This document shows, in pieces, positions 5,723 to 59,262 of a DNA stretch of 64,000 nucleotides (its first letter is position 1; the number at the start of each line of letters is the position of its first letter). Under the pieces are notes generated by a model. It saw only the letters and a list, made by a program, of their open reading frames with translations. It made no database searches and was not told the origin of the DNA. Both the position numbers and the translations under genes were made by a program. Source of the stretch: an uncultured Gammaproteobacteria bacterium (lineage in GTDB: Bacteria > Cyanobacteriota > Vampirovibrionia > LMEP-6097). Location of the stretch: NCBI GenBank assembly GCA_964512985.1, contig CAZELI010000002.1, positions 11,252-75,251 of the forward strand, in the 5' to 3' direction.

Positions 5723-5765
5723 AATTTCTATTATATTCCCAGTTTTTTTTGTTTCTATCTAAAAG

Positions 5766-5857
5766 ATGCTGTAGCGGCACCTAAAAGCACTAAAGCTTAA
5801 GGCTGCTTGGTTTCCCATCTGACCTGGTTCGCTGGCTTTTACCACCAGCTACAGCAC
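5766..5857 (-). ncRNA. ffs: signal recognition particle RNA (4.5S type)
   Basis: The minus strand reads GUGCUGUAGC...ACCAGGUCAGAUGGGAAACCAAGCAGCCUUAAGC...GCUACAGCAU. The core matches the E. coli 4.5S core ACCAGGUCAGGUCCGGAAGGAAGCAGCCAAGGC. It has a GNRA (GAAA) tetraloop and 10 bp 5'/3' terminal pairing. Confidence 0.75.
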
Positions 5858-6136
5858 TTAGGATTGTAACACATTCATTCTTTCTGCAAAGTCAGTTAAA
5901 ATAGTTACATGATTATTAGAAACTTCTAGTATTCCACCACGCACTGAAATTTGATCTTTGTTTCCATTTTCTAAAGTGTATTGCACTGGAGCTGTGTCAA
6001 GTTTTGCTTTGAAATTAGCGTGATTATATAAAATCCCAACCTCTCCAGTTTCTGTAGTTGCCACCAATTCTTTAATCTCATTTTTTAATAAGATCCCTTC
6101 TGGAGTAATAAGCTCAAAGTCAAGTAATTTAGACAT
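5858..6136 (-). CDS. atpC: F-type ATP synthase epsilon subunit, N-terminal beta-sandwich only (short form)
   Basis: 92 aa with the typical ITPEG...GEVGIL..HA....L....V......G......V.GGILEV..N.VTIL pattern. It stops just after the AE that normally precedes the C-terminal helical hairpin. Confidence 0.75.
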   Translation of the reverse strand: MSKLLDFELITPEGILLKNEIKELVATTETGEVGILYNHANFKAKLDTAPVQYTLENGNKDQISVRGGILEVSNNHVTILTDFAERMNVLQS

Positions 6137-6153
6137 ATGGATTATTATATCAT

Positions 6154-6176
6154 GCGCGCCGAAGGCGCGGAACCAC
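6154..6176. repeat. partial (right-end) copy of the 100 bp GC-rich palindromic element
   Basis: gcgcgccgaaggcgcggaaccac is identical to the right terminus of the copy at 28061-28160. Confidence 0.6.
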
Positions 6177-6217
6177 GATAAAAATGAGATTAGAAATTTT
6201 CTGCTATCCTATACTTT

Positions 6218-9004
6218 GTGTACAAGAAACTAAAATTACTAATAATAATTTGGAGCATTATGATGATGAATACAGCGGTTTTAAGCGCTAAAGAAAGCAA
6301 TAATATAAATATTAAAGGGGTAAAATTTATTAAGTCTTTTGCCGGAATTAGTGAATATCAATTAGATAATGGTCTGAAGATTTTACTTAAACCTAATACT
6401 GATGTTCCTTTATTATCCTGGCAGGTTTGGTATAAGGTTGGTAGCCGTAATGAACCTTTGAATTTAACGGGAATTGCTCACTATTTAGAGCATATAATGT
6501 TTAAAGGTACACAAACTTTCGCGAAAGGTGAGATTGCTCAGGTTATACAGCTTAAAGGTGGAGTATTTAATGCTTTCACTAGTGATGACTATACTGCTTA
6601 TTTCGAAAACTTTGCTCCTGATCAATTAGAGCTGGCTATTAAGATTGAATCTGATCGTATGCAGAATTCTAGGCTCAACGCTGAAGAAATTAATTTAGAA
6701 CGTAGCGTGATTGTCTCTGAGCTTGAAGGTAATAGAAATGATCCGAATAATATTCTATATGAAACGCTGAGAGCGACTGCTTATCAAGTGCATACTTATC
6801 GTAATCCAGTTATTGGTTGGCGTGATGATCTTGAGAATATTAATGCCGAGAACATGCGTGAGTTTTATGAGAATTATTACTATCCTGATAATGCAACTGC
6901 AATTCTTGTAGGTAATTTTGATTCGAGTGTTGCATTAAATCTAATCCAAAAATACTTTGGTAAATATAAACCTAAGAAAAATATCAGAGCGCATGCCCCT
7001 AAAGAACCTGAACAGATAGGTACTAAGAAAGTTGTAATTAAGAATGGTGGCGCTGTAAAGCTCTTGGGGATTGCCTTCCATATTCCTGAGTTCGCTCATG
7101 CAGATATACCTGCTTTAAGTATTATTGGAGATGTGGTGTTTAGTGGAATGACTAGTCATCTGTATCCTAAGTTAGTAGATACTGGATTGGTTTCTGGAAT
7201 ATCTGGTCTCGCTGAGCCTAGTCGTGATCCTGGATTGTTTAGAATCATTGCAAATATCAATGATGAAGCTGATATAGAAAAAGTTGAGCAGATAATTTAT
7301 CAAGAAATAGAAGCAGTGAAGAAGGGTATTACTGAGGAAGACTTGAAACTTGCCAAAGCTAGAGAGGAAGCGTCGTTTATCTATCAACAGGATGGTGTTT
7401 ATGATGAAGGTCTGCAGATAGGATACTTTGAATCGATTTGTAATGATTGGACTAAATATGCAACTTGGGTGAATGAGATTAATGCTGTAACTAATGAAGA
7501 TGTGATGAGAGTCGCTAAGAAATATTTCACTGAGACTAATAAAACTGTGGTGTATTTATTACCAGAAGAAGCTAATAATAGTTTACTAAAACCTGAAAAA
7601 CTCTTGGATATTGAGTTAACTAATACTACTCCAGATACAGAAGCTCATTATGGCTCAGCAACAGTGGATCCTATTAACCCAGATAAGTTGAAACAGCTTA
7701 TGAAGATTAGTCAACCTAAGTATTCTAAGGGAATTAAATATTCTAAGCTTGATCTTAATTTTAAGGAATTGGATTCTGCTATGCCTGGTGTGAAAATCTT
7801 ACATCGTCAAGATCATAGTATTCCTATAATTTATATGAATGCCTATGTTTATGGGGGTTCTGTCAATAATGGAGATGATCTTGGTCTAGCTTATTTCACT
7901 AGTAAAATGTTGTCTCGTGGTACCAAAGCTAAGGATAAATATGAGATAGCAAGGTTATTAGATCTCTATGGTGCTGATATTAGCTTTGAATCAGGGGTGG
8001 AGACTGGTAGAATCCACGTTTCTACTCTTACTAAATATGTACCTGAAGTATTTGGGATTCTTAAAGAGATGATTAGCGAGCCTCGCTTTGATACTACTGA
8101 GTTAGATAGGCTCAAAGTACAGACCATAGCGCAAATCAAACAGGAAGATGATTTCCCGCGTAAGATAGCTAAGCGTGAAATGAAACGTGCTGTATACCCT
8201 AAAAGACATCCATATTATTCATATAGTATTAGTGAAAGAGTTTCTGCTATCCAAAAAATTACTATTGATGATCTAAAGCAATTCTATAAGGCTAACTATA
8301 ATACTAATAATATTCTTGTGTCTGTAGTTGGGGACATCGATACAGCTAAAACACAAGAACTAACTCTAAGTACCTTTAAGGATTGGAATGCTGGTGGTCA
8401 GGGTAACCAGCCGCCAGTAATCCCTAATGTTGAGCTTAAAGGACCTATCGAAGAGATTATTGCTAAAGCCGATAAAACACAGACAGAGATTGTGATGGGG
8501 CATGCTTGCCATATAGATAGAATGAATCCAGATTTCTTCCCTCTCTTGATTGCTAATCAAGCCTTAGGTGGCAGTTCTTTATCTTCTAGGTTGGGAACTG
8601 TGGTTAGAGATGAGAACGGTCTTGTTTATAACGTAAGAACTTCTTTCTCTGCAACGCTTGGTGCTGGTGAGTTTGAAGTAGTTCTAGGTTGTAATCCTAA
8701 GAACACTACCAAAGCTATAGAGTTAACGAAGAAAGTTATTGGAGACTTCTTGAAAGCGGGTATCAATGCTACTGAGCTTGAAATAACGAAGTCCTATTTA
8801 ATTGGTTCTTTTGGTCCAAGAACACTTGCTAGTAATGAAGCTATTGTTGACACTTTATCTCAATTACAACTTTATAAGCTTGGCAATGATTATATTAAAA
8901 CTTATGAAGATAGGATTAACGCGATCACTTTAGAAGATGTGAATCGTGTTGCAAGAAAGTATATTCATCCTGATAAGCTTAATGTGGTGATTGTTGGGCC
9001 GTAA
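6218..9004 (+). CDS. tandem M16-family zinc peptidase (two pitrilysin-like units, PqqL-like)
   Basis: 928 aa with a signal peptide, the HxxEH zinc motif (HYLEHIMFKG) in the first unit and a second inactive-type M16 unit. GTG start. Confidence 0.85.
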   Translation: MYKKLKLLIIIWSIMMMNTAVLSAKESNNINIKGVKFIKSFAGISEYQLDNGLKILLKPNTDVPLLSWQVWYKVGSRNEPLNLTGIAHYLEHIMFKGTQTFAKGEIAQVIQLKGGVFNAFTSDDYTAYFENFAPDQLELAIKIESDRMQNSRLNAEEINLERSVIVSELEGNRNDPNNILYETLRATAYQVHTYRNPVIGWRDDLENINAENMREFYENYYYPDNATAILVGNFDSSVALNLIQKYFGKYKPKKNIRAHAPKEPEQIGTKKVVIKNGGAVKLLGIAFHIPEFAHADIPALSIIGDVVFSGMTSHLYPKLVDTGLVSGISGLAEPSRDPGLFRIIANINDEADIEKVEQIIYQEIEAVKKGITEEDLKLAKAREEASFIYQQDGVYDEGLQIGYFESICNDWTKYATWVNEINAVTNEDVMRVAKKYFTETNKTVVYLLPEEANNSLLKPEKLLDIELTNTTPDTEAHYGSATVDPINPDKLKQLMKISQPKYSKGIKYSKLDLNFKELDSAMPGVKILHRQDHSIPIIYMNAYVYGGSVNNGDDLGLAYFTSKMLSRGTKAKDKYEIARLLDLYGADISFESGVETGRIHVSTLTKYVPEVFGILKEMISEPRFDTTELDRLKVQTIAQIKQEDDFPRKIAKREMKRAVYPKRHPYYSYSISERVSAIQKITIDDLKQFYKANYNTNNILVSVVGDIDTAKTQELTLSTFKDWNAGGQGNQPPVIPNVELKGPIEEIIAKADKTQTEIVMGHACHIDRMNPDFFPLLIANQALGGSSLSSRLGTVVRDENGLVYNVRTSFSATLGAGEFEVVLGCNPKNTTKAIELTKKVIGDFLKAGINATELEITKSYLIGSFGPRTLASNEAIVDTLSQLQLYKLGNDYIKTYEDRINAITLEDVNRVARKYIHPDKLNVVIVGP
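8956..9004 (+). repeat. left copy of a 49 bp perfect direct repeat (the 3' end of the M16 peptidase gene including its stop)
   Basis: aaagtatattcatcctgataagcttaatgtggtgattgttgggccgtaa recurs exactly at 9959-10007. Confidence 0.9.
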
Positions 9005-9958
9005 GTGAGTCTTTGAATGATGTCATTAATACAAGAAATTTTTAATTTTATTTTTGCGCAACCAGGCATAGTTCAAATACTTCTCTTTACTCAAGTATTG
9101 ATTTTGATTATATTCTTACCAAGAATTCTTGTTCTATTAGTTCAATTATTTATAAAGAAAAAGAAGGTTAAAACTATAGAGTTATCGATGACCAGAGATC
9201 AGTTTATAACTTCTTTGAAAAATAAATTGTTTGAAACTAATATAAATTTTGAAAAGATTAATGCAACTAAATTTACTCTCTATGACATTTTTTCTACATT
9301 ATTTATTTTGCCAATTTTGCCATTGAAGTTATTTCTACTAATCAAGAATTTATTTTATAAGTCCAAGAGTAGTACTGAAATTGATATTGAAAAATATCTT
9401 AGAGATTTAAGTATGAAAGGATCATTTCATCTGATCTTTTTAGATAATCCAAATAGAGAGTTTGATTTTGAAAGCTATTTTACTAACAGTGATATTACTA
9501 AATATCCTTTAGCGGGAAAAATAGAGGATAACAATATAAGTCTTTATCTCACACAAAAATATCCAAATGAAAATGTTTATTTTCAACAAGATGCAAAAGC
9601 TTTTTTATATGAAATTAGAATTAAGGAGAACAGTGATCGAAATTTAGTTCTTGAATTATATAAGGAAAAATTTTGGTTTATTAGGGATGCTTTTGATATT
9701 TTATATGATAATTATTTGATAGTTATTCCTAAACATTCAACAATTAGTAAGCTAGCTATTCAGCTATTTATACTTCCTTGTTTTTTTTTCTATTGTATTT
9801 TGCAATTCCAAGCCTAAGAATTTTCTCAGTCTTACCATTAGGTTTACTTTTGTTTGATATTTATTCAACCATAAAACAATCTCAGTTAATAATGAAACAA
9901 AGAAAGTTACTAGATGAGACTGTGATCGATTTAATTACAAAATTATCAAAAAATATTT
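9005..9958 (+). mobile_element. 954 bp very AT-rich insertion bounded by the 49 bp direct repeats; no recombinase gene
   Basis: It is flanked by perfect 49 bp repeats. Its composition is visibly more AT-rich than the flanks. It carries only a membrane-protein ORF. Confidence 0.5.
9017..9817 (+). CDS. hypothetical membrane protein inside the insertion; possibly continues to 9960 after a frameshift at a T9 tract
   Basis: 266 aa ORF with hydrophobic segments. A second ORF (9778-9960) overlaps it at a run of nine T (9781-9789) in another frame. Confidence 0.4.
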   Translation: MMSLIQEIFNFIFAQPGIVQILLFTQVLILIIFLPRILVLLVQLFIKKKKVKTIELSMTRDQFITSLKNKLFETNINFEKINATKFTLYDIFSTLFILPILPLKLFLLIKNLFYKSKSSTEIDIEKYLRDLSMKGSFHLIFLDNPNREFDFESYFTNSDITKYPLAGKIEDNNISLYLTQKYPNENVYFQQDAKAFLYEIRIKENSDRNLVLELYKEKFWFIRDAFDILYDNYLIVIPKHSTISKLAIQLFILPCFFFYCILQFQA

Positions 9959-10007
9959 AAAGTATATTCATCCTGATAAGCTTAATGTGGTGATTGTTGG
10001 GCCGTAA
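9959..10007 (+). repeat. right copy of the 49 bp perfect direct repeat
   Basis: Identical to 8956-9004. It ends immediately before the stop codon of the minus-strand gene at 10008. Confidence 0.9.
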
Positions 10008-11762
10008 TTAAGGTGCTAAGTGGCTACCTTTACTAAGTACTATCAGGCTTTTGTCGTCATTAAACTCTCGAGAGTATTGTAAATATGCTTGAATAATTTT
10101 TTGAGGATTAGTACCAGCGCTTAATACTGGTGTGATAACTGAATTTAGTTGATCAAATCGAGGGGGTATAACTTCTTCACGTTTTAGCTTATCGCCTGAT
10201 TTACTTTTTAATATACCATCTGAAGCAAGAACCAAACCTTCAATATTCTTTTTATCAATAAAACAAACAGTAAATTTTGCGGGATTTTGTTTATGCCAAC
10301 CTTGACCTCGATTCACTACCCCTAAATATGATTTTACTGTACCTTCTCCTGGTATACGATCTGCCGAATTCAAAGAATTTTCAATAATCCCATTAGCATT
10401 AAAAGCAGAAGCAATAGTATCTCCAGCTGAAATTAACATCAATCTTTCACCAAGATCAATAGCCAGGGAAACTGTAGTATTTGCTTCTATAAATTCTTCT
10501 TCTTTATTTTGTGATTTTGTTTGAGTTATTCCAACTGTTTCAATTCTAGTGTTTCTTTCAAGTGGCTCAGCTTTAATCGTTGTAGGTGATTTAATAACTG
10601 TCTCTGGGATTATTTCTTCGCATCTAGATTTAATTTGATCAACTGAATCATTTAAAACTTTCATCGCATTTAGAATCGGCTTATAATCATCAATCAAAAA
10701 CGTTTTCGCAAGCTCATCTAAACTCTTATTCTGATAGAATTTCAAAGATTCATTCTCTAGTTTTTTCAAATCAATAGGTGTATAACCAGCTCTTGTTAAT
10801 GTAGTTCCTTCACCCAATTGACTATAGTCAAACTCATTCCTTCTCTGATTATGAATGTCCCTATTTTTAATAACTAATTTCATCGAACAATCACTGAATT
10901 CATCTTTTGCTAAGTTCAACCCAAGATGCTCTAAATATAAATCCTGTAATTTTTTCTTAGCGTCAATACCTGGTTTTAAGAACTGTCGTAAATTACTAGC
11001 TAATAATGTTTGATAACTATTAGCATCAAATAAATTAGAAAATAATTCTTCAACAGTGGAAATATTCAAGCCTGGTTTAGTTTTTTTTACAAATTTAGAA
11101 CCAAGCTTTTCAAAATCAGCAAACTCTAATTCATGATTTTTAACATGATCAATTACCGCATCTGCTGCGATTTTGCCAGTAGATAATTCTCTATCTAAGC
11201 CAGCTCCACTAATGCCATCTGCAACAGCTGCTAATAATACTGGAGCTTTATTAACATTAGCAGGATTTCTCTGATCTAAACCTACACAATAAGTCGCATC
11301 AGAATTATCACTAAACATTCTACGCTTACCAGCTAAACTTTCTCTCCCCACTGTGAAAGGCTGGTCTTCATTAGCTCCTAAATTGATATTTTTTGCGTTA
11401 ATTAAAATTGGATCAGCAATAGTCCTTAGTAAACGATTTGTATCTCTCAAGGCAGTGACAAAATTAATTTTAAATTTGTCATAAATACTTTTAACTCGTT
11501 CATTTTCATTTTGAACAGAATCGGTAGCTAAATTAAAAATTCCAGCTAAGCTCTCTATAAAGTTAGCAACAGATTGATTAATAATTTTGCTAATTTCAGA
11601 AAAGAACCAGGATGCATAGTCATAACTTAATCCAGAACTAGGAATATCTTTTATTTGAATTTCCTGAACAGCAGCTTTTAATTCAGGCTCAGAAAAATTT
11701 GCATTAATTAAAACCTCTTGCCATCTCGGTATTTGATTGCCAGGAATAGTAGACATGGGCAA
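10008..11762 (-). CDS. PP2C-family phosphatase-like protein with an N-terminal extension and a large internal insert
   Basis: PP2C-like motif series: AAVADGISGAG, ISAGDTIASAF, LVLASDGILKS and a C-terminal DDKSLIVLS. About 230 aa lie between the first two motifs. Confidence 0.55.
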   Translation of the reverse strand: MPMSTIPGNQIPRWQEVLINANFSEPELKAAVQEIQIKDIPSSGLSYDYASWFFSEISKIINQSVANFIESLAGIFNLATDSVQNENERVKSIYDKFKINFVTALRDTNRLLRTIADPILINAKNINLGANEDQPFTVGRESLAGKRRMFSDNSDATYCVGLDQRNPANVNKAPVLLAAVADGISGAGLDRELSTGKIAADAVIDHVKNHELEFADFEKLGSKFVKKTKPGLNISTVEELFSNLFDANSYQTLLASNLRQFLKPGIDAKKKLQDLYLEHLGLNLAKDEFSDCSMKLVIKNRDIHNQRRNEFDYSQLGEGTTLTRAGYTPIDLKKLENESLKFYQNKSLDELAKTFLIDDYKPILNAMKVLNDSVDQIKSRCEEIIPETVIKSPTTIKAEPLERNTRIETVGITQTKSQNKEEEFIEANTTVSLAIDLGERLMLISAGDTIASAFNANGIIENSLNSADRIPGEGTVKSYLGVVNRGQGWHKQNPAKFTVCFIDKKNIEGLVLASDGILKSKSGDKLKREEVIPPRFDQLNSVITPVLSAGTNPQKIIQAYLQYSREFNDDKSLIVLSKGSHLAP

Positions 11763-11854
11763 AATAATACCATGATTTTAATAGTTGCCTAGGAGTGGAA
11801 ATACCTACTAAATCAAGGTTTTATAATAATTGAGTTTTTGAAAGAAGCTAACTA

Positions 11855-12394
11855 CTACTCACCTAATTCAGAACCAGATGACTTATCAAGAGTAAAGTCA
11901 GAGGCTTTGACAGTTTTGAGGAATTCTTTAAATTCTTTACGTGCTTCGGGATTAGAGATAGGGTCTATTTGATCTTCGCTGTCTTGCAAGACTTCCATCT
12001 GACCACAAACATCTTCGATAATTTTCTCAGATACGAATATAGAAGCTTCTAGTCTAAGAGCAATGGAGATAGCATCGCTAGGTCTTGCATCGATTGCCAT
12101 TGAGGCACCGTCTTTGTCATTTAAAATTATTGATGCAAAGAAAGTAGATTCTTCATATGAATTAATTTCGATACAGTCTACTTCTGCTTCAAGTGAATCG
12201 ATCATGTCTACCATTAAATCGTGTGTCATAGGGCGTTCTGTTTCTGCTCCAGTAAGACCACGTGCGATAGCTTGTGCCTCAGCTTGTCCAATCCAAATCG
12301 GTAGTGTGTGTTTACGCTGGGCATCGTTGAGGATGACCAGAGGTATATTGGTTCTAACGTCTAGTGCGACGCCGGTAACGAACATCTCAAGCAT
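11855..12394 (-). CDS. bifunctional nuclease family protein (DUF151/BFN)
   Basis: LPIWIGQAEAQAIA, RPMTHDLM and DARPSDAISIALR motifs are characteristic of the family. Confidence 0.7.
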   Translation of the reverse strand: MLEMFVTGVALDVRTNIPLVILNDAQRKHTLPIWIGQAEAQAIARGLTGAETERPMTHDLMVDMIDSLEAEVDCIEINSYEESTFFASIILNDKDGASMAIDARPSDAISIALRLEASIFVSEKIIEDVCGQMEVLQDSEDQIDPISNPEARKEFKEFLKTVKASDFTLDKSSGSELGE

Positions 12395-13949: not shown

Positions 13950-13995
13950 GGTGGCTTTATTATAGCTTGTTGATTAAGAGTTTAGAGAATTATTC

Positions 13996-14020
13996 ATTAG
14001 GCAACTTTTTTCTTGGTATG
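13996..14020. repeat. left copy of a 25 bp imperfect direct repeat (24/25)
   Basis: attaggcaacttttttcttggtatg matches attaggtaacttttttcttggtatg at 16158-16182. This copy covers the 3' end of the antitoxin gene. Confidence 0.7.
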
Positions 14021-14308
14021 AAGAAGTTTACTAATAAGCTTGGGTGCCCTCTGAATACAAATTAGATATGAAGCAACACTGTGATCTGGAGAATTCACTC
14101 CCTGTTCCCATTTCCTGAGTGTCTCTAATGAGAAGCCAAAAGTTGTAGAAAAAGCCTGCTGAGTCATCTTAAGTGATCTACGGATTTTTTTTACATCAAT
14201 ACCTTTTCTTACGGTTCTTACAGAGCTTGGGTTGGCAAGAGCTTCTTCAATAGACTCTATTAGTTCTTCACCTAAGGATTTTTCTTGTTTTATCTTTTTG
14301 GTTGACAT
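13997..14308 (-). CDS. XRE/NadS-type helix-turn-helix antitoxin
   Basis: 103 aa with the HTH segment IRRSLKMTQQAFSTTFGFSLETLRKWEQG. It lies 2 nt downstream of the toxin ORF. Confidence 0.75.
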   Translation of the reverse strand: MSTKKIKQEKSLGEELIESIEEALANPSSVRTVRKGIDVKKIRRSLKMTQQAFSTTFGFSLETLRKWEQGVNSPDHSVASYLICIQRAPKLISKLLHTKKKVA

Positions 14309-14310
14309 AA

Positions 14311-14646
14311 TTATTCTTTAAATTGTTTAATTAATTTAGGGATTAGTTTCTTGAGTTGATTTCTTTCCGCATCAGATATATTTTCTTTTTTAGTTTTCTC
14401 GTATGTCCCTATCATTATAATTAAAAGTCCTTTTGAGTAATGATATAGTATCCTTAATCCCCCACTTTTACCTCTATGACTATGTTGAGATTGCCATCGA
14501 AGTTTCCTAACACCACCAGTTCCGCTTATAATTTTTCCTGCGTCAGGATATTGCATTAGGTAGTCATATAGATTCTCTAAATCTCCAAGACTAAGTACAT
14601 CACTTGAATCCTTTATGAATTTAGCTGTGGTTTTAATAGTAATCAT
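14311..14646 (-). CDS. RelE/HigB-2-like type II toxin
   Basis: 111 aa. GGVRKLRW...GKSGGLRILYHY is the motif typical of HigB-2/DUF1044-type toxins. Toxin-first order as in hig systems. Confidence 0.7.
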   Translation of the reverse strand: MITIKTTAKFIKDSSDVLSLGDLENLYDYLMQYPDAGKIISGTGGVRKLRWQSQHSHRGKSGGLRILYHYSKGLLIIMIGTYEKTKKENISDAERNQLKKLIPKLIKQFKE

Positions 14647-16007: not shown

Positions 16008-16157
16008 GGTAACTCCATTGTAACATTAGCCATTTTATTCTTCTACTGACTTTCGAGTTTGAAAGCCTTTGTATATAAGGTTTTCAGGAAAATATTAATA
16101 GTAATATTGTAGTTAAATTTCTTTAATAATATGGGTTGATTTATATAGGTGGTTTTA

Positions 16158-16182
16158 ATTAGGTAACTTTTTTCTTGGTATG
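16158..16182. repeat. right copy of the 25 bp imperfect direct repeat
   Basis: attaggtaacttttttcttggtatg lies in non-coding DNA between the island and secA. Confidence 0.7.
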
Positions 16183-24863: not shown

Positions 24864-25986
24864 ATGTCCGATCTTTCTGAACAAACCTATGATTTAAATG
24901 AACTTAAGCTTCGTTACTCTTCACTAAAGGAGTATCTTTGACCAAGAAGAGGTCAAAAAAGAGATAGCAGATTTAGAAGCTGAGATGTCTGCGCCGGGGT
25001 TTTGGGATGATACCAATGCTGCACAAGCCAAATCACAAACTCTTGCACAAAAGAAAAATCAATTAGGACAATTTCAAAGTTGGAACAAGCGTCTACAAGA
25101 TATCTTGGATATGGAAGAGTTTCAATCCTCTTCTTCTGATAATGAAGAGAAGCTGCAATATCAAGCAATGATTTTAGATGAGTATTTGTCTTTAAGTAAA
25201 GAATTTAAGGTTTTTGAATTTCAAAAAATGATGTCAGGTGACTATGATAAGTCTGATGCCATAGTTTCTATTAACGCAGGTGCCGGTGGTACGGACGCGC
25301 AGGACTGGGCGGAAATGCTGCTTCGGATGTATACTCGTTGGGCAGAGAATTACCGAAGTTATACTGTTGAATTGTTAGAACGTTCTGATGGAGAGGAAGC
25401 TGGGATTAAATCAGCTACTATAAAGGTGACTGGTCCTTATGCTTATGGATATTTAAGTGCAGAGAAAGGTGTGCATCGTTTAGTACGTAAATCTCCGTTT
25501 AAATCTTCTGCTGACTCTAGGCAAACGAGCTTTGCTGGTTTAGAAGTTACGCCAGTAGTAGCTGATATGTCTAAGATCATTGAGCTTGAGGAAAAAGATC
25601 TTGAGATAGATACAATGCGTTCTGGTGGTGCTGGTGGACAAAACGTTAATAAAGTAGAAACGGCAGTGCGTGTTAAACATATACCAAGCGGCATAGTGGT
25701 GAAATGTACTCAGCAGCGTAGTCAGATGCAGAATAAAGCTAGTGCTTTAGACCTTATTCGTTCCAAGCTACTTGCAATTAAAGAAGCTGAGCAAAAAGCC
25801 AAAATTATTGAGCTTAAAGGGGAATCGGTATCTGCTTCTTGGGGAAACGCTATAAGATCCTATGTTCTAGATGAAGGTAGGGTGAAAGATGTTCGTACTA
25901 AATATGAGACTCGTGATGTGGAATCTGTTCTAAATGGCGATATTGATGCTTTTATAGAGGCATATTTAAGACAAGAAGCGAAGTAA
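24864..25986 (+). CDS. prfB: peptide chain release factor 2, requires programmed +1 frameshift at 24936-24942
   Basis: ATG at 24864 opens a 25-codon frame ending ...AAG GAG TAT CTT TGA C. The +1 frame continues [24 protein letters not shown] into the long ORF, which carries [17 protein letters not shown] (GGQ). An SD-like AGGAG lies upstream of CTT TGA C. Confidence 0.9.
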
Positions 25987-26021
25987 AGTGTCCAAGTGGC
26001 TTAGTGACAGGGTGGCTGAGT
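25987..26021. repeat. single arm of the octamer-repeat element, just after the prfB stop
   Basis: agtgtccaagtggcttagtgacagggtggctgagt shows an 8 nt periodic AGTGnCnn pattern like the arms at 39299, 45732 and 53079. Confidence 0.45.
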
Positions 26022-28060: not shown

Positions 28061-28160
28061 GTGGGTTCCGCCGCTTCGCGGCGTTTGCGCTGCGCGCGGC
28101 TGAATGAAAGAAATTATTTAGTAGTCCGCAGGGCGAACCGCGCCGAAGGCGCGGAACCAC
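28061..28160. repeat. 100 bp GC-rich palindromic MITE-like element, copy 1
   Basis: gtgggttccgccgcttcgcggcgtttgcgctgcgcgcggc...AT-rich centre...agtccgcagggcgaaccgcgccgaaggcgcggaaccac. The termini are inverted (GGTTCCGC / GCGGAACC). Internal hairpins are gccgc-ttcg-gcggc and cgcgcc-gaa-ggcgcg. Confidence 0.85.
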
Positions 28161-28217
28161 AATATAAATAAAATCTAGAAATAGAATTGATAAGGCGATG
28201 ATTAGAAGGATTGCTTA

Positions 28218-32458: not shown

Positions 32459-32558
32459 GTGGGGTTCCGCCGCTTCGCGGCGTTTGCGCTGCGCGCGGCT
32501 TAATATAATGAATTATTTAGCAGTCCGCAGGACAAACGCGCCGAAGGCGCGTAATCAC
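32459..32558. repeat. 100 bp GC-rich palindromic element, copy 2 (degenerate right terminus)
   Basis: The left half is identical to copy 1 (ggttccgccgcttcgcggcgtttgcgctgcgcgcggct). The right end reads gcgtaatcac instead of gcggaaccac. Confidence 0.85.
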
Positions 32559-32617
32559 AACATAAAATGAAATTTAGATAAATCAATGATTATTTGATTA
32601 GCTGAGTAGTTACGTAA

Positions 32618-38671: not shown

Positions 38672-39921
38672 TATTTCAAAATCTCTTCCGCTACTAATCT
38701 TGCAGTATTGTATCCGCTAAGCTTACTCTTTAATTCAGACAAATCAGTTTTAATTTTCTGGTAATAAGCACTATAAGCTCCGTTCTTTTCAAACCAAGAC
38801 TCTGTTTCTGTTACAAAGTTTTTAACGTTAGCCTCATACTGTAAAAATTCTTTAATTATATACTTACCTGCAATAATATTAGCTAAGCCAGCCATAGTGA
38901 TAGTTCTGAAACATAGATAGAGAAGGTAATTGAATAAATTAGACCTGTAACTAAGGAAGTAAGGAGTAGTATAAAGTGCGGCTTCTAGTGTTACTGTTCC
39001 TGAGCAAAGCCAGAGTGCATCAGCGGCTGAGAGTAATTTATGATTAGAACTGAGCATATCTTGTGATTCTAATATTTCGATATGATGACTTTGTTTTCCT
39101 TCAAGTGCCATATTTAAAGGTGTTTTAAGCCCACATTGCTCTAGAAGTGATTTACTTATCGTTGGAGCTTTAGCTAGGATAAATCTAAAATTAATTTCTG
39201 GGTTTCTTTTAATTAACTGCTCTGATGCTTGAATCATTAGTGGAAGCATTTCTTTGATTTCCGCTTTGCGACTGCCAGGAAATAATCCTATTAATGTTTG
39301 AGTGGCTGAGTGGCTGGGTGCTTGGGTGACTGTATTGATTGATAGCCCTCTTCTATATTGGATTTCACCAAATTGCCTCAGAAATTCTTCTTTATTGATT
39401 GGTTTAGCAAGCGAGTCTAAGACTGGGTTTCCTACGTATTTGTATGGAATGCCAGATTTCTGATAGAGCTTTTCTTCTAAGGGTAAAGTACAAAGAACTT
39501 TATCTATATATTTCTTGATGTTATTGATACGCCAAGGTCTAGATGCCCAGATTTGGGGTGCGATAAATTCTATGATTTTAATTTCAGAAGATTGTTTTTT
39601 AATTGCTTGAGCGAGTTGTAAATTAAATCCACCATAATCTACAAGTAAGACTATATCTGGCTTCCAGTTTATAATTTCTGTCGCTATTTCTTGTTTCAGT
39701 GAAAGTATGGTAGAGATATTGGCGATAACTTCACTGATACCAGAGAAACCATAATCTCGGTAATCTTTAATTACTTTCACTCCTAGTTCTTCTAGTATCT
39801 CTGAGCCAAAGGCTCTAATCTCTGCTTCTGGACAGAGTTTGAAGATTTCTATTACAACTCTAGAAGCATGACTCTCGCCGCTTAACTCCCCGCATGAAAT
39901 AAATACTTTTGGTTTAGTCAT
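38671..39921 (-). CDS. lpxB: lipid-A-disaccharide synthase
   Basis: 416 aa with an N-terminal ISCGELSGESHASRVV motif and GT19 family architecture. It contains an octamer-repeat insertion (VTQAPSHSATQT). Confidence 0.85.
   Translation of the reverse strand: MTKPKVFISCGELSGESHASRVVIEIFKLCPEAEIRAFGSEILEELGVKVIKDYRDYGFSGISEVIANISTILSLKQEIATEIINWKPDIVLLVDYGGFNLQLAQAIKKQSSEIKIIEFIAPQIWASRPWRINNIKKYIDKVLCTLPLEEKLYQKSGIPYKYVGNPVLDSLAKPINKEEFLRQFGEIQYRRGLSINTVTQAPSHSATQTLIGLFPGSRKAEIKEMLPLMIQASEQLIKRNPEINFRFILAKAPTISKSLLEQCGLKTPLNMALEGKQSHHIEILESQDMLSSNHKLLSAADALWLCSGTVTLEAALYTTPYFLSYRSNLFNYLLYLCFRTITMAGLANIIAGKYIIKEFLQYEANVKNFVTETESWFEKNGAYSAYYQKIKTDLSELKSKLSGYNTARLVAEEILK
39299..39331. repeat. single-arm octamer-repeat element inside lpxB
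   Basis: tgagtggc tgagtggc tgggtgct tgggtgac t. Read on the gene strand it encodes VTQAPSHSATQT. Confidence 0.6.
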
Positions 39922-44093: not shown

Positions 44094-44193
44094 ATGGGTT
44101 CCGCCGCTGCGCGGCGGTTGCGCTGCGCGCGGCTTGAGATATATTTTATTTCAGCAGTCCGCAGGACGAACCGCGCCGCAGGCGCGGAACCAC
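44094..44193. repeat. 100 bp GC-rich palindromic element, copy 3
   Basis: gggttccgccgctgcgcggcggttgcgctgcgcgcggc...agtccgcaggacgaaccgcgccgcaggcgcggaaccac lies between atpH and rpiB. Confidence 0.85.
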
Positions 44194-44217
44194 AAGAAAA
44201 AAATGTGTGTAACTACT

Positions 44218-45726: not shown

Positions 45727-45731
45727 AATAA

Positions 45732-45799
45732 AGTGTCTAAGTGTCTGAGTGTCTGGGTGGATATGTAGCAGGCACTCACAACCCAGTCACTCAGACACT
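45732..45799. repeat. complete octamer-repeat palindromic element between atpE and the b-prime gene
   Basis: agtgtcta agtgtctg agtgtctg ggtgg - loop - cactcaca acccagtc actcagac act. The arms are largely complementary (about 17 of 19 in the best register, by eye). Confidence 0.8.
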
Positions 45800-45806
45800 G
45801 CTTAAT

Positions 45807-52352: not shown

Positions 52353-55040
52353 ATGAACGAATATAACCCTAAATTAATTGAAGCTAAATGGCAAAAACTC
52401 TGGGAAGAGTCTGGTATCTATAAGTTTGACGATAAACCTGATAATGCTAAGCGTTTTTATTCACTAGTAATGTTTCCTTATCCTTCTGGGAATTTGCATA
52501 TGGGGCATATGCGAGTTTATACAGTTTCGGATTTGATTTCCCGTTATAAAACGATGCAAGGTTATAAGGTACTTAATCCTATGGGCTTTGATGCTTTTGG
52601 TTTGCCAGCAGAGAACGCTGCTATCGAGCGTGGTGTACATCCAGGCAAGTGGACTGACTCAAACATCGCTTATATGCGTGATGAGCAGCTTAAACGCATG
52701 GGTACTAGCTATGACTGGTCGCGTGAGGTGATTTCTTGTCACGAAGATTACTATAAATGGACTCAATATTTATTTCTCAAGTTATACGAGAAGGGATTAG
52801 CCTATCAGAAAGAAGCGCCAGTGAACTGGTGTCCAGAATGTAACACGGTACTTGCTAATGAGCAGGTAGAAGATGGCATGTGCTGGCGCCATACTAATAC
52901 TCCCGTAAATAAACGCATGATGAAGCAATGGTTCTTGCGCATCACTGATTATGCAGAAGAATTACTTAATGACCTAGATAAGTTAGAACACTGGCCTGAA
53001 AGCGTTAAGACTATGCAACGTAATTGGATAGGGCGTAGTGTCGGTGCTGAAATTGATTTTGAAATTTGTCAAAGTGGCGGAGTGTCTGAGTGTCTGAGCG
53101 ACAGAGTAACTGACCCAGCCACCCAGTCACCCAGCCACTCAATTACAGTTTATACTACTAGACCTGATACGGTTTATGGAGTGACTTATATGGTGCTTGC
53201 ACCAGAACATAAATTAGTTAAAGGACTTACTACTAAGGATCGCCTTGCAGAAGTAGAAACATATATTAAAGAGTCTTCTAGTAAGTCTGAGATAGAGCGT
53301 ACTGCTGAAGGTCGCAAGAAGACTGGAGTCTTTACTGGCGCTTATTGTATTAATCCTTATACTGAAGAAAAAATTCCAGTATGGATAGCAGATTATGCTT
53401 TAGTAGATTACGGTACTGGTGCGGTGATGGCAGTGCCTGCACATGATGATAGAGATTGGGAGTTTGCAAAGGAATTTGGATTGCCGGTAAGGGAGGTAAT
53501 TAGAGTGACCGAGTGTCCGAGTGTCCGAGTGTCTGAAAGTTCAGTCACTCAGTCACCCAGCCACTCAGTCACTAAAAATGCTTACACTGGTCCTGGAACA
53601 ATGATCAACAGCCAACAGTTTAATGGTCTGGATAATGAAACTGCTAAGCAGAAGATCGTAAAATATGGCTCAGAGCAAGGCTTTGCGCGAGAGACTGTTA
53701 AATATAGATTACGCGATTGGTTGATTAGTCGTCAGAGATATTGGGGTTGTCCGATTCCATTAGTAGAAGCTGAATCAGGCGAGATAGTAGCTGTCCCTTA
53801 TGAATCGCTTCCAGTGAAGCTTCCATTAGATATAGACTTTAGCCTTGCTAAGTCTGAAGGTGGTTCTATATTGGCTAATAAACCTGATTGGTATAATGTC
53901 ACTCTTCCTGATGGACGTAAGGCTAAGCGCATCACTGATACTATGGATACTTTCATGTGTTCATCATGGTATTTCTTGCGTTATCCTGATGCTCATAATT
54001 TAGAGAAGCCATTTGCTAAAGATCAAGTGTTTCCTGTTGATCAATATGTGGGTGGTATTGAACATGCGATCTTACATCTCTTGTATTCTAGGTTTTTTAC
54101 TAAGGCATTACGTGATTGTGGGATGCTAGATTTCTCGGAACCTTTTACTAGATTGCTTTCTCAAGGGATGGTAGTTAAGTATTCAGAGAAAGAAAACAAG
54201 ATAGTGAAGATGTCTAAATCTCGCGGGAATGTTGTGGGTACTAATGAGTTCTTTGATGAATATGGTGCAGATGCAGCTAGATTGTTTATATTATTCGCTG
54301 CTCCAGTAGAAGCTGAAGTAGAGTGGGTTGATGAAGGAGCCCAAGGGCAATATAGATTTATTAATAGAGTTTGGAGGATGTATGCTGCGTTGAGTTCGGC
54401 ATTTAATACGACCTCATCTAGTGAAGAAATCGACTTTAATGCTCTTTCTCCAGCTAATCAAGAGATTCTCCGTATTTTTCATTTTACGCTTAAGTCTATT
54501 ACTGAGGATCTTAGTCCTGAGCGTAATGGCTTTAATACTGCGATTGCTCGTATGTTTGAGTTTGTGAATGCAATGTACAAGTATATGAACGCAAAGGGCT
54601 TTGATGTAGGTAAAGGTATATTAAATGATGAAGATAGTTTAGTAGTGAAACATGTTCTGGTGAATTTTATTAAAACACTTGCACCGTTCACGCCACACTT
54701 AGCAGAGGAACTATGGCAAATATATAGTGTCCGATTGACTGAGAGTCTGAGTGACCGGAACCCAGTCACCCAGTCACCTAGTCACTTAGTCACTAATTCT
54801 GTACACTTGCAACGTTGGCCTATATATAATCCTAATTATTTAGAATCTAAGACTGTTAATTTAGTATTGCAAATCAAAGGTAAAAAAGTAGATGTTATAG
54901 AAATAGCTAAAGACCTCTCAGAGAAAGACCTTGAGCAATTAGCTATGGATAATGAGAAGATGAAGAAACGTTTAGAAGGATTGGATATTAAGAAGGTTAT
55001 TATAGTACCAAATAAATTAGTTAATGTGGTAGCAGGTTAA
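52353..55040 (+). CDS. leuS: leucyl-tRNA synthetase carrying three in-frame repeat-element insertions
   Basis: 895 aa with HMGH ([11 protein letters not shown]) and KMSKS motifs plus a CP1 editing domain (TTRPDT). Confidence 0.95.
53079..53140. repeat. octamer-repeat palindromic element inside leuS, copy 1
   Basis: ggagtgtc tgagtgtc tgagcgac agagtaac tgacccag ccacccag tcacccag ccactc. It encodes [21 protein letters not shown] just before the conserved TVYTTRPDT. Confidence 0.8.
53503..53573. repeat. octamer-repeat palindromic element inside leuS, copy 2
   Basis: gagtgacc gagtgtcc gagtgtcc gagtgtct gaaagttca gtcactca gtcaccca gccactca gtcact. It encodes [23 protein letters not shown]. Confidence 0.8.
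54726..54794. repeat. octamer-repeat palindromic element inside leuS, copy 3
   Basis: agtgtccgattgactgagagtctgagtgaccggaacccagtcacccagtcacctagtcacttagtcact encodes [23 protein letters not shown]. Confidence 0.8.
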
Positions 55041-56593: not shown

Positions 56594-57316
56594 CTATACT
56601 AGGTTATTTGTATTAGAAGCAAGCTTGCATGCTCCCCATAATGTAGGATACTCTAGGGTAGATTTTTGGATTTTTAGATCATAAACTAGGACTTGGGATA
56701 AATAAGACATGGCTTCTTGAATAATAGGCTCTATTTCTGTATCCCAGTTTTGGGTAGCTTTGGAGCCACCTATAACTATAATCTGCGGGGAGAATAAACA
56801 GGCTAAATTAATCAAAGTGTCTTTAAGAGAATTAGCTGTGGTAGTGAAGCTAAGGCGTAGCGCTGGAGAATAGTCTGTAGTAAATATTTCTCCATCTTTA
56901 TACAAGCCAGCACTAAATCCAGTTCCCATATTTATATAAAGTACACTAATGAATTGATTCTTTAATCCATATATAGCTTCGCCACTTGCAGCCAGTTCTA
57001 CGTCAGTAGCTAAAGATACTGGAAGCTTTGTGAGCTTAGAGATTTCTTGCCATAATGGATAACCAATATATTGAGGAAGATTAATGCTTTGTCTTAGAAC
57101 CTGCTCAGAGTCCCAGAAGCCAGCAGCACCAACTCCTATCTGAGATATATTTTCTAATTTAATATTTTTAATTTCTTCGCTAAATTTTTTTATAAACTCT
57201 TGAGGAGTTGGAGGAGTTTCATATTTAATAAGTTGTTTGAGCTTTTGAGATTCAAACAAACCTATTCTTGTATAAGTACCACCCAGGTCTACTGTTATTG
57301 CTCTGCCATTGACCAA
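56594..57316 (-). CDS. ROK/ASKHA-type sugar kinase-like protein (short)
   Basis: VDLGGTYTRIGLF phosphate-1 motif, GVGAAGFWD, and ATDVELAASGEAIYG resembling the ROK xNDANAAALGE motif. It lacks the usual C-terminal Zn motif. Confidence 0.5.
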   Translation of the reverse strand: MVNGRAITVDLGGTYTRIGLFESQKLKQLIKYETPPTPQEFIKKFSEEIKNIKLENISQIGVGAAGFWDSEQVLRQSINLPQYIGYPLWQEISKLTKLPVSLATDVELAASGEAIYGLKNQFISVLYINMGTGFSAGLYKDGEIFTTDYSPALRLSFTTTANSLKDTLINLACLFSPQIIVIGGSKATQNWDTEIEPIIQEAMSYLSQVLVYDLKIQKSTLEYPTLWGACKLASNTNNLV

Positions 57317-59262
57317 AATTTCTCATCTCCGATATAGAGTATACCTGAATTAACAATAGTATTAGCATGCCTCCCAAGTGTCTCAAGGTTAAGTAAAACT
57401 TTCGGTGATTTCTTAGTGGCTGAACAAATGACAAACTGCGGTTTGGTTAGTTCTACTAAAGTATTCAAGTAAATATCGCTCTCTTTAAGATTAGGAAGAA
57501 TTAGTAAATTAACTTCTTTAATATTATCAACTAAACCATTGAGATCCTTTAGGGAATTACGTTTCTTGATAATGAGAGTGTCTAGATTATTGACTTTGAG
57601 GTATTTATAATTGATTGTTTTGTCTTCTAAGATTTGTTCTAATTCTTTGTTCCCTTGTATCTTACCGTCTTTTATTATTAGCTTAACAATATTAGATGGA
57701 CATAAATTAATGGCTAATATCATTGCAATAGAGCTGATAATAATGCTTGCTCTAATATATTTATCGTTGAATAGTCTTTTAAAGATCCGAATAATAAAAT
57801 CATCTAATTTATCATCTTGAGATATAGTGTCGTTTATTACGAGGTCAGTCTTATTAAAAATACTATAAGCAGTCAGATTAAAAGCTATTATTAAAAATAT
57901 AAATGTTTCTGCATTGACATTTACATGGGAGTCTATACAAGGTAAATAGTTAGAGAGTTCTAGTAAATATTTAAAGAAATTAAGTAGCGGTTCTATAATG
58001 AAACAGAGTCCTAGAAAGGAAGTTACTGTTAGTACTGAAAATAAAGGTGCAAGTAAGAGGTTTGCAAGTATAGACCAAGCTTGCAGAGTATCAAAGTAGT
58101 ACATTATTAATGGAAGTAATAATATTTGGACGGCAATAGTTACTGATATAACTTCTTTAAAATAAGATGGAATGTAATTTACTTCCTTTAGTTTATTATT
58201 GATGCGCGGTGTCCAAATTAAGATAGCTAAAGTTGCCAGATAGCTTAATTGAAAACCAATGTCAAAGATAGTATAGGGATCGATTATGAGTAATATTGTT
58301 GCCAAGTAAATAAGGAAGTGCATGCTGCGCGGTTTACGCTTCATGAGACTAAGAATTAGAAATGCAGTAATTAATATATCTGCTCTAACGATTGATGCAC
58401 TAAATCCTGCTAAACCCGTATAAATAAAGCTGGCAACGATGATAATCGGAGCGGAGATTTGTGGTTTGAGTTTGAGAATATTAGCGATCCAGGTCAGCAT
58501 CAAGCTCAGCAACATTAAATTAAATCCTGATGCTGAGAATAAATGTCCTAAACCTAAATTAAAGATTGCGGGAACGATTCTTGGAGGTATCTCAACTACT
58601 TGTGAGCCTAAGACTAGGCTGGTGACGATTTGAGCATTCTCTGGACTTAGATATCTGCTGAAATATCTTTGAATATAGCCTTGCATTTCTTGTAGCCAAG
58701 AGTTCTTGTGACTAATGTAGGCGACATCTTTATTAGTAGCTTGATAAAATACTTTATCTTTCTTGTAAATCTTAGCTCTATTGCTTTTAAGTTTTTCTAA
58801 TGTGAAATTTTTACTAGATTCTAATCCAACAACATCATTAATGCTCAAACCCTTACTAGAATCGCTTTTTGCTAGGATTCTGTATGGTAAAAATATTTCA
58901 CGTATTTTCTCTTTTAGGTCAGGATCCTTAGCTTTAAGTTCAATAATAAAATCAGATTTAAAGAATTTTTCACGAGGATTGTTAATAATGAGGCAATAAT
59001 AATCTCCGCTGCGAATTTTATTGTTGATAATATTTTCGATATCCTGGAATTCTAGTTGTTCTGATCGTAGATTATAGTTAAAGAACACTAGTAGAAAAGC
59101 GATAAAGGTGCTGATAATTTCTTTCTTACGATGTGCCAGTGAAGTAAATACCGTCGTAGAAATAAATAAGCAAACTACTCCTGCAAGCAAAACTCTATAA
59201 TCTCCCAATACAAAATATATGGAGCCGATTATAGTGCCAATGGCAATCGCAAATAAGGACAT
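57295..59262 (-). CDS. comEC: ComEC/Rec2-family competence membrane protein
   Basis: 655 aa polytopic protein with the competence-domain motif LGLGHLFSASGFNLMLLS. I did not see an HxHxDH metallo-beta-lactamase motif in the C-terminal region. Confidence 0.7.
   Translation of the reverse strand: MSLFAIAIGTIIGSIYFVLGDYRVLLAGVVCLFISTTVFTSLAHRKKEIISTFIAFLLVFFNYNLRSEQLEFQDIENIINNKIRSGDYYCLIINNPREKFFKSDFIIELKAKDPDLKEKIREIFLPYRILAKSDSSKGLSINDVVGLESSKNFTLEKLKSNRAKIYKKDKVFYQATNKDVAYISHKNSWLQEMQGYIQRYFSRYLSPENAQIVTSLVLGSQVVEIPPRIVPAIFNLGLGHLFSASGFNLMLLSLMLTWIANILKLKPQISAPIIIVASFIYTGLAGFSASIVRADILITAFLILSLMKRKPRSMHFLIYLATILLIIDPYTIFDIGFQLSYLATLAILIWTPRINNKLKEVNYIPSYFKEVISVTIAVQILLLPLIMYYFDTLQAWSILANLLLAPLFSVLTVTSFLGLCFIIEPLLNFFKYLLELSNYLPCIDSHVNVNAETFIFLIIAFNLTAYSIFNKTDLVINDTISQDDKLDDFIIRIFKRLFNDKYIRASIIISSIAMILAINLCPSNIVKLIIKDGKIQGNKELEQILEDKTINYKYLKVNNLDTLIIKKRNSLKDLNGLVDNIKEVNLLILPNLKESDIYLNTLVELTKPQFVICSATKKSPKVLLNLETLGRHANTIVNSGILYIGDEKFWSMAEQ

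Follow-up and report, generated by a model that had tools for sequence, protein, structure and literature searches.

The stretch of DNA analysed here (64,000 nucleotides of contig CAZELI010000002.1, hereafter the window) comes from an uncultured, Melainabacteria-like bacterium and contains, immediately downstream of a gene for an M16 (insulinase-type) peptidase, an AT-rich insert flanked by two identical copies of a 49-nt sequence, the repeat R. The product of the peptidase gene matches the Pfam families Peptidase_M16 (E = 4e-43) and Peptidase_M16_C (E = 5e-67). On the far side of the insert, a gene of 584 codons is transcribed towards the peptidase gene, and is followed by a gene for a bifunctional nuclease domain (BFN) protein. 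An original prediction had described the 584-codon gene as a convergent, PP2C-like gene abutting the second copy of R. The convergent orientation and the position are correct; the name rests on a match to Pfam PP2C_2 that remains below threshold (E = 0.005, 16.8 bits for a cut-off of 24) and is kept here as a label. The region is core chromosome, containing dnaA, polA, secA, leuS, flagellar genes, and ComEC.

Repeat R, AAAGTATATTCATCCTGATAAGCTTAATGTGGTGATTGTTGGGCCGTAA, corresponds to the end of the peptidase open reading frame (ORF), and its two copies are identical at 49 of 49 positions, as predicted. R is present at two places only within the window, and none of 100 dinucleotide-preserving shuffles contained two or more matches to it. 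The identity breaks off sharply on both sides (G versus T preceding R, G versus T following it). The first copy completes the peptidase gene, whose ORF is intact, so that the proposed regeneration of the coding end was observed. The second copy leads directly into TTA at 10008–10010, the stop codon of the minus-strand 584-aa ORF. The cassette was added to the zero-length junction of the convergent peptidase and PP2C-like genes, and both genes were kept intact. The added unit is 1003 bp, comprising the 954-bp cassette and one extra R.

The insert differs from its surroundings in composition, with a GC content of 24.6% compared to 35.9% for the window and 35–41% for core genes, and a GC content at third codon positions (GC3) of 0.20 compared to 0.26–0.33 in host genes. 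Two overlapping ORFs, ORF266 and ORF60, occupy almost all of it. The ATG of ORF266 is located 12 nt past the peptidase stop codon, and the TAA stop codon of ORF60 (9958–9960) starts on the last base of the insert and runs over the first two bases of R. A stop-free stretch of 266 codons is far longer than those found in shuffled sequences (mean of 60 and maximum of 130 in 2000 trials). The two ORFs overlap at a run of nine T residues, where one additional T (T10), or a −1 slip on T_TTT_TTT, would fuse them into a protein of 314 aa; the T9 run is likewise present in the Logan contig L001. A full HMMER scan of 1.8 billion representatives identified one homolog of the cassette protein, P0005 (208 aa), and a profile search of 5.8 billion proteins revealed no further ones. 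ORF266 and ORF60 are parts of one gene, since residues 162–308 of the fused protein align with residues 61–204 of P0005 across the frameshift (E = 2e-23); the N-termini align too. The predicted protein consists of an N-terminal helix, a soluble middle, and a C-terminal hairpin. It has no Pfam, PHROG, or PADLOC family, its only matches in PHROGs being at E ≥ 0.017, and an AlphaFold2 model was too poor for a fold search (predicted local distance difference test score, pLDDT, of 43.7). Judged from these sequence features, the insert is a single gene, namely an orphan membrane-protein gene broken by a frameshift, and its low GC and GC3 together with the orphan two-member family mark it as foreign DNA. 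The AT-rich composition and the membrane protein of the original prediction were thus retained, whereas the coding sequence was found not to be intact, a single gene being split at T9.

The gene encoding P0005 was found in another uncultured bacterium (GCA_964420165.1; L042 6001–6627 and L043 1132–1758), 3 nt downstream of a 5-formyltetrahydrofolate cyclo-ligase gene and with a convergent gene ahead, in a region of low GC content (about 26%). The cassette protein of the window is longer than P0005 by approximately 90 aa.

Table 1. Features of the insertion locus, in window coordinates.
Feature	Position	Strand	Description
M16 (insulinase-type) peptidase gene	6218..9004	+	928 aa; insertion target, C-terminus unchanged
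R copy 1	8956..9004		Final 49 nt of the M16 peptidase ORF, TAA stop codon included
AT-rich insert	9005..9958	+	954 bp, 24.6% GC; absent from L039, L002, L003, and L006
ORF266	9017..9817	+	5' part of the cassette gene; predicted N-terminal transmembrane helix and central soluble region
ORF60	9778..9960	+	3' part of the cassette gene; predicted C-terminal transmembrane hairpin
T9 homopolymer	9781..9789	+	Frameshift site where ORF266 and ORF60 overlap
R copy 2	9959..10007		Non-coding; between the cassette stop codon and the PP2C-like stop codon
PP2C-like gene	10008..11762	-	584 aa; lineage-specific, present in L039, absent from L002, L003, and L006
Spacer upstream of the PP2C-like gene	11763..11854	-	92 nt; conserved in L039
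BFN (bifunctional nuclease domain) gene	11855..12394	-	Pfam BFN_dom, E = 4e-38; ancestral convergent neighbour of the peptidase gene

Related loci were identified by scanning genomes for the peptidase and metagenomes for BFN and by looking up homologs of the PP2C-like protein; five of them were informative. The closest relative, L039, is 100% identical in BFN, 95% in TrpE, and 96% in the peptidase C-terminus at the amino acid level, and its synonymous divergence (dS) from the window is about 0.33. Its genes are arranged as trpE, BFN, PP2C-like gene, and peptidase 3' end, and it contains a single R. At the junction, ...GTAGGGCCGTAA/TTAAGGTGCTAAGTGGCTACC..., the TAA of the peptidase gene lies directly against the TTA of the PP2C-like stop codon, and the empty-site sequence includes GGGCCGTAA/TTAAGGTGCTAAGTGGCTACC (the slash marks the junction). 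The single R of L039 differs from that of the window at 2 of 49 positions. This is the empty site that had been predicted, with the peptidase stop codon directly followed by the PP2C-like gene. The comparison with related genomes that had been proposed as a check also showed that the arrangement of the window is not shared, since the cassette was missing from all four relatives listed in Table 1.

The other relatives provided an earlier state of the same site. In L002, L003, and L006, whose peptidases are 90%, 89%, and 83% identical to that of the window and share the ending ...KYIHPDKLNVV(I/V)VGP*, the stop codons of the peptidase and BFN genes are 2–3 nt apart, and both the cassette and the PP2C-like gene are missing. 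Relative to these three loci, positions 9006–11855 of the window (2.85 kb) are extra, and the 92-nt spacer upstream of the PP2C-like gene forms the far end of the missing region. The comparison of gene orders indicates two successive additions directly behind the peptidase stop codon, first of the PP2C-like gene and later of the cassette, which pushed the PP2C-like gene outward. The earlier addition of the PP2C-like gene, like the frameshift in the cargo, goes beyond what had been read from the window initially.

The ortholog of the PP2C-like protein in L039 (P0003; 4085–5839) occupies the same position and is 71–73% identical, whereas the neighbours of the gene are 95–100% identical between the two genomes. 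The ratio of nonsynonymous to synonymous divergence (dN/dS) was 0.43 for this gene and 0–0.08 for its neighbours, with similar dS, and its GC3 was 0.19. By these sequence measures, the PP2C-like gene is fast-evolving and has been vertically inherited since its addition. The spacer contains a promoter-like site (minus strand, 11791–11764), which is a consensus match only. Only three relatives of the PP2C-like protein were found among 5.8 billion proteins, and in L040 and L041 two distant homologs (32% identity) stand in tandem upstream of secE-nusG (L040 87–3406).

A further irregularity was detected in the sister species L003 (metagenome-assembled genome, MAG, SRP150892_co2_480; CAYPGT010000030), where the scaffold at 9733–9942 has a gap of 100 N with identical 55-nt sequences on both sides, the repeated segment finishing at the peptidase stop codon. 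This 55-mer, which involves the same gene end, was the only other long exact bracketing repeat across 368 kb of related loci. An overlap of 55 nt is also a SPAdes k value, and the gap is probably an assembly-graph branch at that base in a co-assembly rather than an insert that was sequenced. The branch shows that the site varies in structure, without revealing the nature of this heterogeneity. In the more distant relative L004, an integrase beside the peptidase gene was looked for and rejected, the rearranged neighbourhood containing only LpxB, SufE, and similar proteins.

The age of the insertion was estimated from the two copies of R. No difference was observed between them in 49 positions, whereas about 10 would be expected between a coding copy and one drifting freely if the event were as old as the split from L039, for which dS is about 0.33. 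The event is therefore recent, as had been proposed. The probability of observing no difference drops under 0.05 for events going back more than about 30% of the way to the split, and the insertion would date roughly to that last 30%.

Sequence data other than the assembly also contained the structure. The Logan contig L001 (1014 bp, SRR7369907), which was recovered as the same contig in 5 runs, corresponds to positions 8975–9988 of the window, that is, to the insert plus exactly k − 1 = 30 nt of each copy of R. It ends 30 nt into R because unitigs built with k = 31 are cut at the repeat. Similarly, L044, a Logan contig containing the PP2C-like gene of the window, stops exactly 30 nt into R. 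The reads behind L001 and L044 therefore connect the insert to R at each of its ends. The k = 31 graph is identical for an integrated cassette and for a circle coexisting with an empty site. The cassette protein (P0001) and the PP2C-like protein (P0002) were each found on three NCBI/ENA contigs, the longest being 141,649 bp; for P0002, two contigs belong to the 20–50 kb class and one, the 141,649-bp contig, to the 50–200 kb class. Exact look-ups of the peptidase, of the 584-aa form of the PP2C-like protein, of BFN, and of P0001 returned no record, probably owing to the calling of other start codons. Together, these results make it very probable that the structure is a real and recent insertion for which the empty site has been confirmed.

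To account for the insertion, we tentatively favour a reciprocal crossover between two copies of R, one on a circular form of the cassette and the other on the chromosome, with an enzyme acting in trans, in the manner of a cis-mobilizable element (CIME). The cassette would be present as a small circle bearing its own R, and the circle would integrate by a single, Campbell-type crossover between this R and the chromosomal one. The crossover would restore the peptidase 3' end and leave one R on each side of the insert; it is known that the single crossover of a circular molecule duplicates the homologous segment around the inserted DNA (PMC3240628). A site-specific recombinase from another part of the genome or from a helper element could serve as this enzyme, as could the homologous recombination machinery of the host. 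In this scheme, the circle as an intermediate, the crossover inside R, and the enzyme acting in trans are steps that we infer. The cassette would then behave as an integrase-less element, CIME-like or a satellite, delimited by attL and attR attachment sites at the 3' end of a gene. The newest element would adjoin the target gene, with the older PP2C-like addition displaced outward, and recombination between the two copies of R would precisely excise the cassette and restore a site of the L039 type.

Several observations point to recombination mediated by R. The final base of the stop codon is also the final base of R, which restores the gene and nothing more, in the manner of the identity blocks seen in elements directed to the 3' ends of genes; a random 49-bp target duplication including the gene junction would be expected to have this extreme position in about 2 of 50 cases. 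The insert consists of little else than one promoterless ORF, a compact arrangement typical of mobile cassettes, and a random fragment is unlikely to show such a fit. Both the PP2C-like gene and the cassette were added at one and the same boundary, with the newer element closest to the target gene. Accretion at att sites in which the newer element is nearest the target gene has been described (PMC5704250; tycheposon preprint, 10.1101/2020.12.28.424599). The assembly graph of L003 also breaks at the same base.

Other observations weigh against this explanation. The crossover does not account for the origin of R on the first circle, and the R borne by the element must have been 100% identical to a lineage-specific coding sequence, which differs at 2 of 49 positions even in L039. 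R lacks the features of a recombinase site: no dyad symmetry or hairpin was found in it (minimum free energy of 0 kcal/mol), its sole palindrome is the 8-bp TAAGCTTA, its nucleotide conservation among orthologs is not elevated (54th percentile of the peptidase gene), and there is no room for arm sites beside the cassette ORF, which leaves 12 nt free at its left end and 0 nt at its right end. A Pfam scan of 65 ORFs of the window (nearly all ORFs of at least 110 aa and several shorter ones) revealed no integrase, recombinase, or transposase, in agreement with the original prediction, and the flanks of L002, L003, L004, L006, and L039 contained no recombinase. Viral contigs contained no match to R or to a degenerate R, and no viral or proviral contig carried the site; the degenerate pattern had no match in a metagenome scan. 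The cassette DNA matched neither phages (blastn against 50,697 phage records) nor plasmids, and the profile of the cassette protein had no relatives in the viral contigs of IMG/VR. Neither these searches nor PHROGs gave signs of a prophage or phage-satellite remnant. Relatives, viral contigs, phages, and plasmids yielded neither a parent element nor a second cassette using R. The candidate for a decayed third R beyond the PP2C-like gene was not significant (p = 0.19 and 0.49), the gene for P0005 is not flanked by a duplication in L042 or L043, no sample of the same strain with an empty-site allele was found, and the insertion is a single instance.

The att-site pair put forward in the original prediction is putative in this light, R having neither dyad symmetry, additional conservation, nor room for arm sites. 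R shows no pair of inverted recombinase-binding repeats separated by a spacer, as a core site would have, and R together with its flanks folded no better than shuffled sequences on either strand (z from +1.3 to −0.3). Moreover, no parent element was found, and a target duplication made de novo fits the perfect identity of the copies equally well. R does regenerate the gene end, and L039 contains the empty site; no cognate recombinase was found in the window or in the flanks of the relatives, and R lacks the architecture of an attachment site. The cassette is therefore described as working like an att-bounded element but is not filed as one.

The main competing explanation, which is possible though rather doubtful, is a one-off illegitimate insertion of a foreign fragment accompanied by a de novo duplication of the target, both copies of R being derived from the target in the absence of a recombinase. 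The duplication could result from a break with nicks staggered by 49 nt, followed by repair and fill-in, or from template switching, akin to fork stalling and template switching or microhomology-mediated break-induced replication (FoSTeS/MMBIR), if a nascent strand departed after the TAA, copied a foreign template, and re-entered 49 nt back. The fragment could have been acquired, for example, by competence through ComEC or be left over from a phage or plasmid. The gene for the ComEC competence channel is present at 57295–59262, making DNA uptake plausible. The perfect identity of two copies of a lineage-specific coding sequence follows automatically from such an insertion, which is also more economical with respect to the negative results, since neither a recombinase, nor terminal inverted repeats, nor site features in R are required. 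It agrees with this being the sole such event in the window, with a cargo family having no repeat-flanked copy elsewhere, and with a frameshifted cargo on which selection is not obvious. Microhomologies of 2–3 nt may exist at the junctions (TAA on the left and AA on the right), and, as the intergenic space is 0 nt, insertions duplicating the junction would be those that survive selection. Duplications of 49 bp are, however, far beyond the usual range of transposases or end joining. Illegitimate insertion also requires that the ends of the fragment match the start region of an ORF and a stop codon, which is improbable for random ends, and that the right end of R fall exactly at the gene junction, as it would in about 4% of random placements. 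It leaves unexplained the reuse of the boundary by the PP2C-like gene and the break in the L003 graph. A misrepresentation by the assembly is improbable: the chromosome would be empty, and the 1003-bp unit would exist as a free circle or a variable tandem, the loop having been threaded once. A de Bruijn graph cannot separate the chromosomal from the circular or tandem cases at k < 49; the k = 31 graph loops on R, the ends of L001 and L044 fit either topology, and L003 shows that repeat-flanked artefacts are left at this very site. However, reads from five runs connect the insert with R at both of its ends, excluding a chimera with unrelated DNA, and P0001 and P0002 each occur on three contigs. 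In addition, 49 is not the maximum k of common assemblers, so that longer k-mers or read pairs probably spanned R, and the existence of a free circle with 49 bp in common with the chromosome would in turn imply the crossover mechanism that we favour.

The possibility that the cassette is ancestral and was lost from L039 by precise recombination between copies of R, with gene conversion keeping the copies in the window identical, appears very improbable. Deletion between 49-bp direct repeats would indeed recreate the sequence of L039, and gene conversion had been raised as a possibility when the duplication was first noticed. Against it, about 10 differences in R would be expected and none was seen, the cassette is absent from all four other relatives, its GC content of 24.6% has not been ameliorated, and the origin of the duplication would still have to be explained. 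Least credible of all is a classical mobile element, whether an insertion sequence (IS), a miniature inverted-repeat transposable element (MITE), a transposon with a long target-site duplication (TSD), an integron cassette, or a group I or II intron. The direct repeats at the flanks and the one promoterless ORF tightly fitting the insert are reminiscent of a cassette. However, no terminal inverted repeats were detected in the insert (score within the range of shuffled sequences, p = 0.29), no transposase or IntI integrase platform is encoded in the window, and no other copy of the insert is present in it; R is unfolded, and an attC-like or dif-like structure was ruled out. Rfam gave no match at E ≤ 1 between positions 8000 and 12500, neither an intron nor another RNA family, and the only matches at gathering score in the window were tRNA-Cys and the signal recognition particle (SRP) RNA. 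A duplication of 49 bp is also at odds with this class of elements.

The crossover of a circular cassette at R can be compared with several known systems. CIMEs are exemplified by the element found at fda in S. thermophilus. They are integrase-less remnants lying between attL and attR where a target gene ends (3' side), and accretion is known at such sites (Guedon et al. 2017, PMC5704250). The insert resembles them in having direct repeats over the end of a protein-coding gene, in the regeneration of this end, in the absence of integration genes inside, and in the position of the newer element next to the target gene with older material further out. It differs from them by its size of about 1 kb, with one ORF, no non-coding arms, and no third att copy; in addition, no parent integrative and conjugative element (ICE), integrative and mobilizable element (IME), or integrase was found, R lacks the features of a recombinase site, and excision is only proposed. 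Tycheposons of Prochlorococcus have genomic islands flanked by partial 3' ends of the target gene, in which newcomers push older material inward (Hackl et al., 10.1101/2020.12.28.424599). The locus studied here is similar in these respects, and also in being part of a streamlined genome related to Cyanobacteria with flexible genes gathering at a fixed site. Tycheposons, however, carry tyrosine recombinases and target tRNA genes, whereas the target here is a protein-coding gene, no recombinase is present, and the "island" consists of two genes.

A homology of 49 bp is close to the shortest that RecA-dependent recombination can use. A Campbell-type single crossover would yield the observed order of homology, insert, and homology, with identical copies and no element-encoded enzyme, although the 49 bp observed here contrast with duplications of 109–950 bp documented for single crossovers of engineered plasmids (PMC3240628). 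As in integron cassettes, one promoterless ORF fills a unit that also contains a short site, read-through expression is probable, and a circle is postulated; unlike them, the unit has no IntI, attI, attC, or array, and R is a housekeeping coding sequence without hairpin potential. Transposases and casposases, which produce TSDs, and Cas1-Cas2, which duplicates a repeat, act by staggered cleavage and fill-in of the target; typical TSDs are 2–15 bp, and Cas1-Cas2 inserts spacers of about 30 bp. These reactions also give a target-derived duplication with perfectly identical copies, but no terminal inverted repeats, transposase, or Cas1 were found here, and 954 bp far exceeds a spacer of about 30 bp.

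A more ambitious extension of the crossover model, which we regard as unlikely, is that the peptidase 3' end serves, in a Melainabacteria genus, as the attachment site of a trans-acting system shuttling minimal single-gene circles, each composed of an ORF and the 49-bp gene end, into the chromosome and out of it. Such shuttling would amount to integron-like cassette exchange without a platform or attC hairpins and, with the same low likelihood, to a system new to description. If it existed, the PP2C-like gene and the break in L003 would be further products of the same system.

Additional observations were made in the window. The leuS ORF (52353–55040, 895 aa) is intact and contains three palindromic elements (53063–53146, 53502–53580, and 54724–54801) composed of octamer repeats, (GAGTGTCT)n followed by (CAGTCACC)n; similar units are found at 25985–26018, 39291–39316, and 45730–45806. 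The first element is in frame and adds approximately 25 aa (VGAEIDFEI[[25 protein letters not shown]][10 protein letters not shown]); it is predicted to fold as a hairpin (−29 kcal/mol, z = −3.4). From their sequence, these elements look like in-frame insertions of small palindromic repeats in a housekeeping gene, and they recall the palindromic elements of Rickettsia and the short tandemly repeated repetitive (STRR) sequences of cyanobacteria. In this genome of 36% GC, a GC-rich family of intergenic repeats of about 110 nt is present at 28063–28174, 32462–32572, and 44096–44207, and partially at 6155–6190. It is predicted to form a long hairpin (−57 kcal/mol, z = −5.6), belongs to no Rfam family, and resembles repetitive extragenic palindromic (REP) sequences or MITEs.

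Upstream of the peptidase gene, atpC (5858–6136) encodes an ATP synthase epsilon subunit of 92 aa, that is, the beta-sandwich domain alone, compared to 143 aa in L002, L003, and L004. It lacks the approximately 180 nt encoding the C-terminal helical (regulatory) domain, and the ORF ends where the gene for the SRP RNA (5762–5858) begins. On the other side, a toxin-antitoxin pair, RelE-like and MqsA/helix-turn-helix (HTH)-like (13997–14646), adjoins trpE and is also present in L039; a 28-nt sequence over the stop region of the antitoxin (13993–14020) recurs at 16155–16182 with 93% identity. The dnaA gene (60461–61906) is about 50 kb from the insertion, which places the site near the replication origin and not near the terminus or dif. 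L002 and L003 are titled "uncultured Gammaproteobacteria"; their peptidases are 62–63% identical to those of the "Candidatus Melainabacteria" MAGs L004 and L005, and the order of the GHMP-kinase-like, atpC, and peptidase genes is common to the four. This comparison suggests that the Gammaproteobacteria label of L002 and L003 is wrong.

As a single event with a broken cargo, the insertion has limited general importance. It does provide a clean, datable case of gene gain without recognisable machinery in a streamlined, uncultured relative of Cyanobacteria, with boundaries defined to the base. If the duplication was made de novo, it would be an unusually long target duplication produced by illegitimate recombination or template switching in bacteria. 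If R is a functional attachment site, the cassette would be an att-bounded cargo element of the smallest kind, and the peptidase 3' end would be a new integration hotspot at a protein-coding gene.

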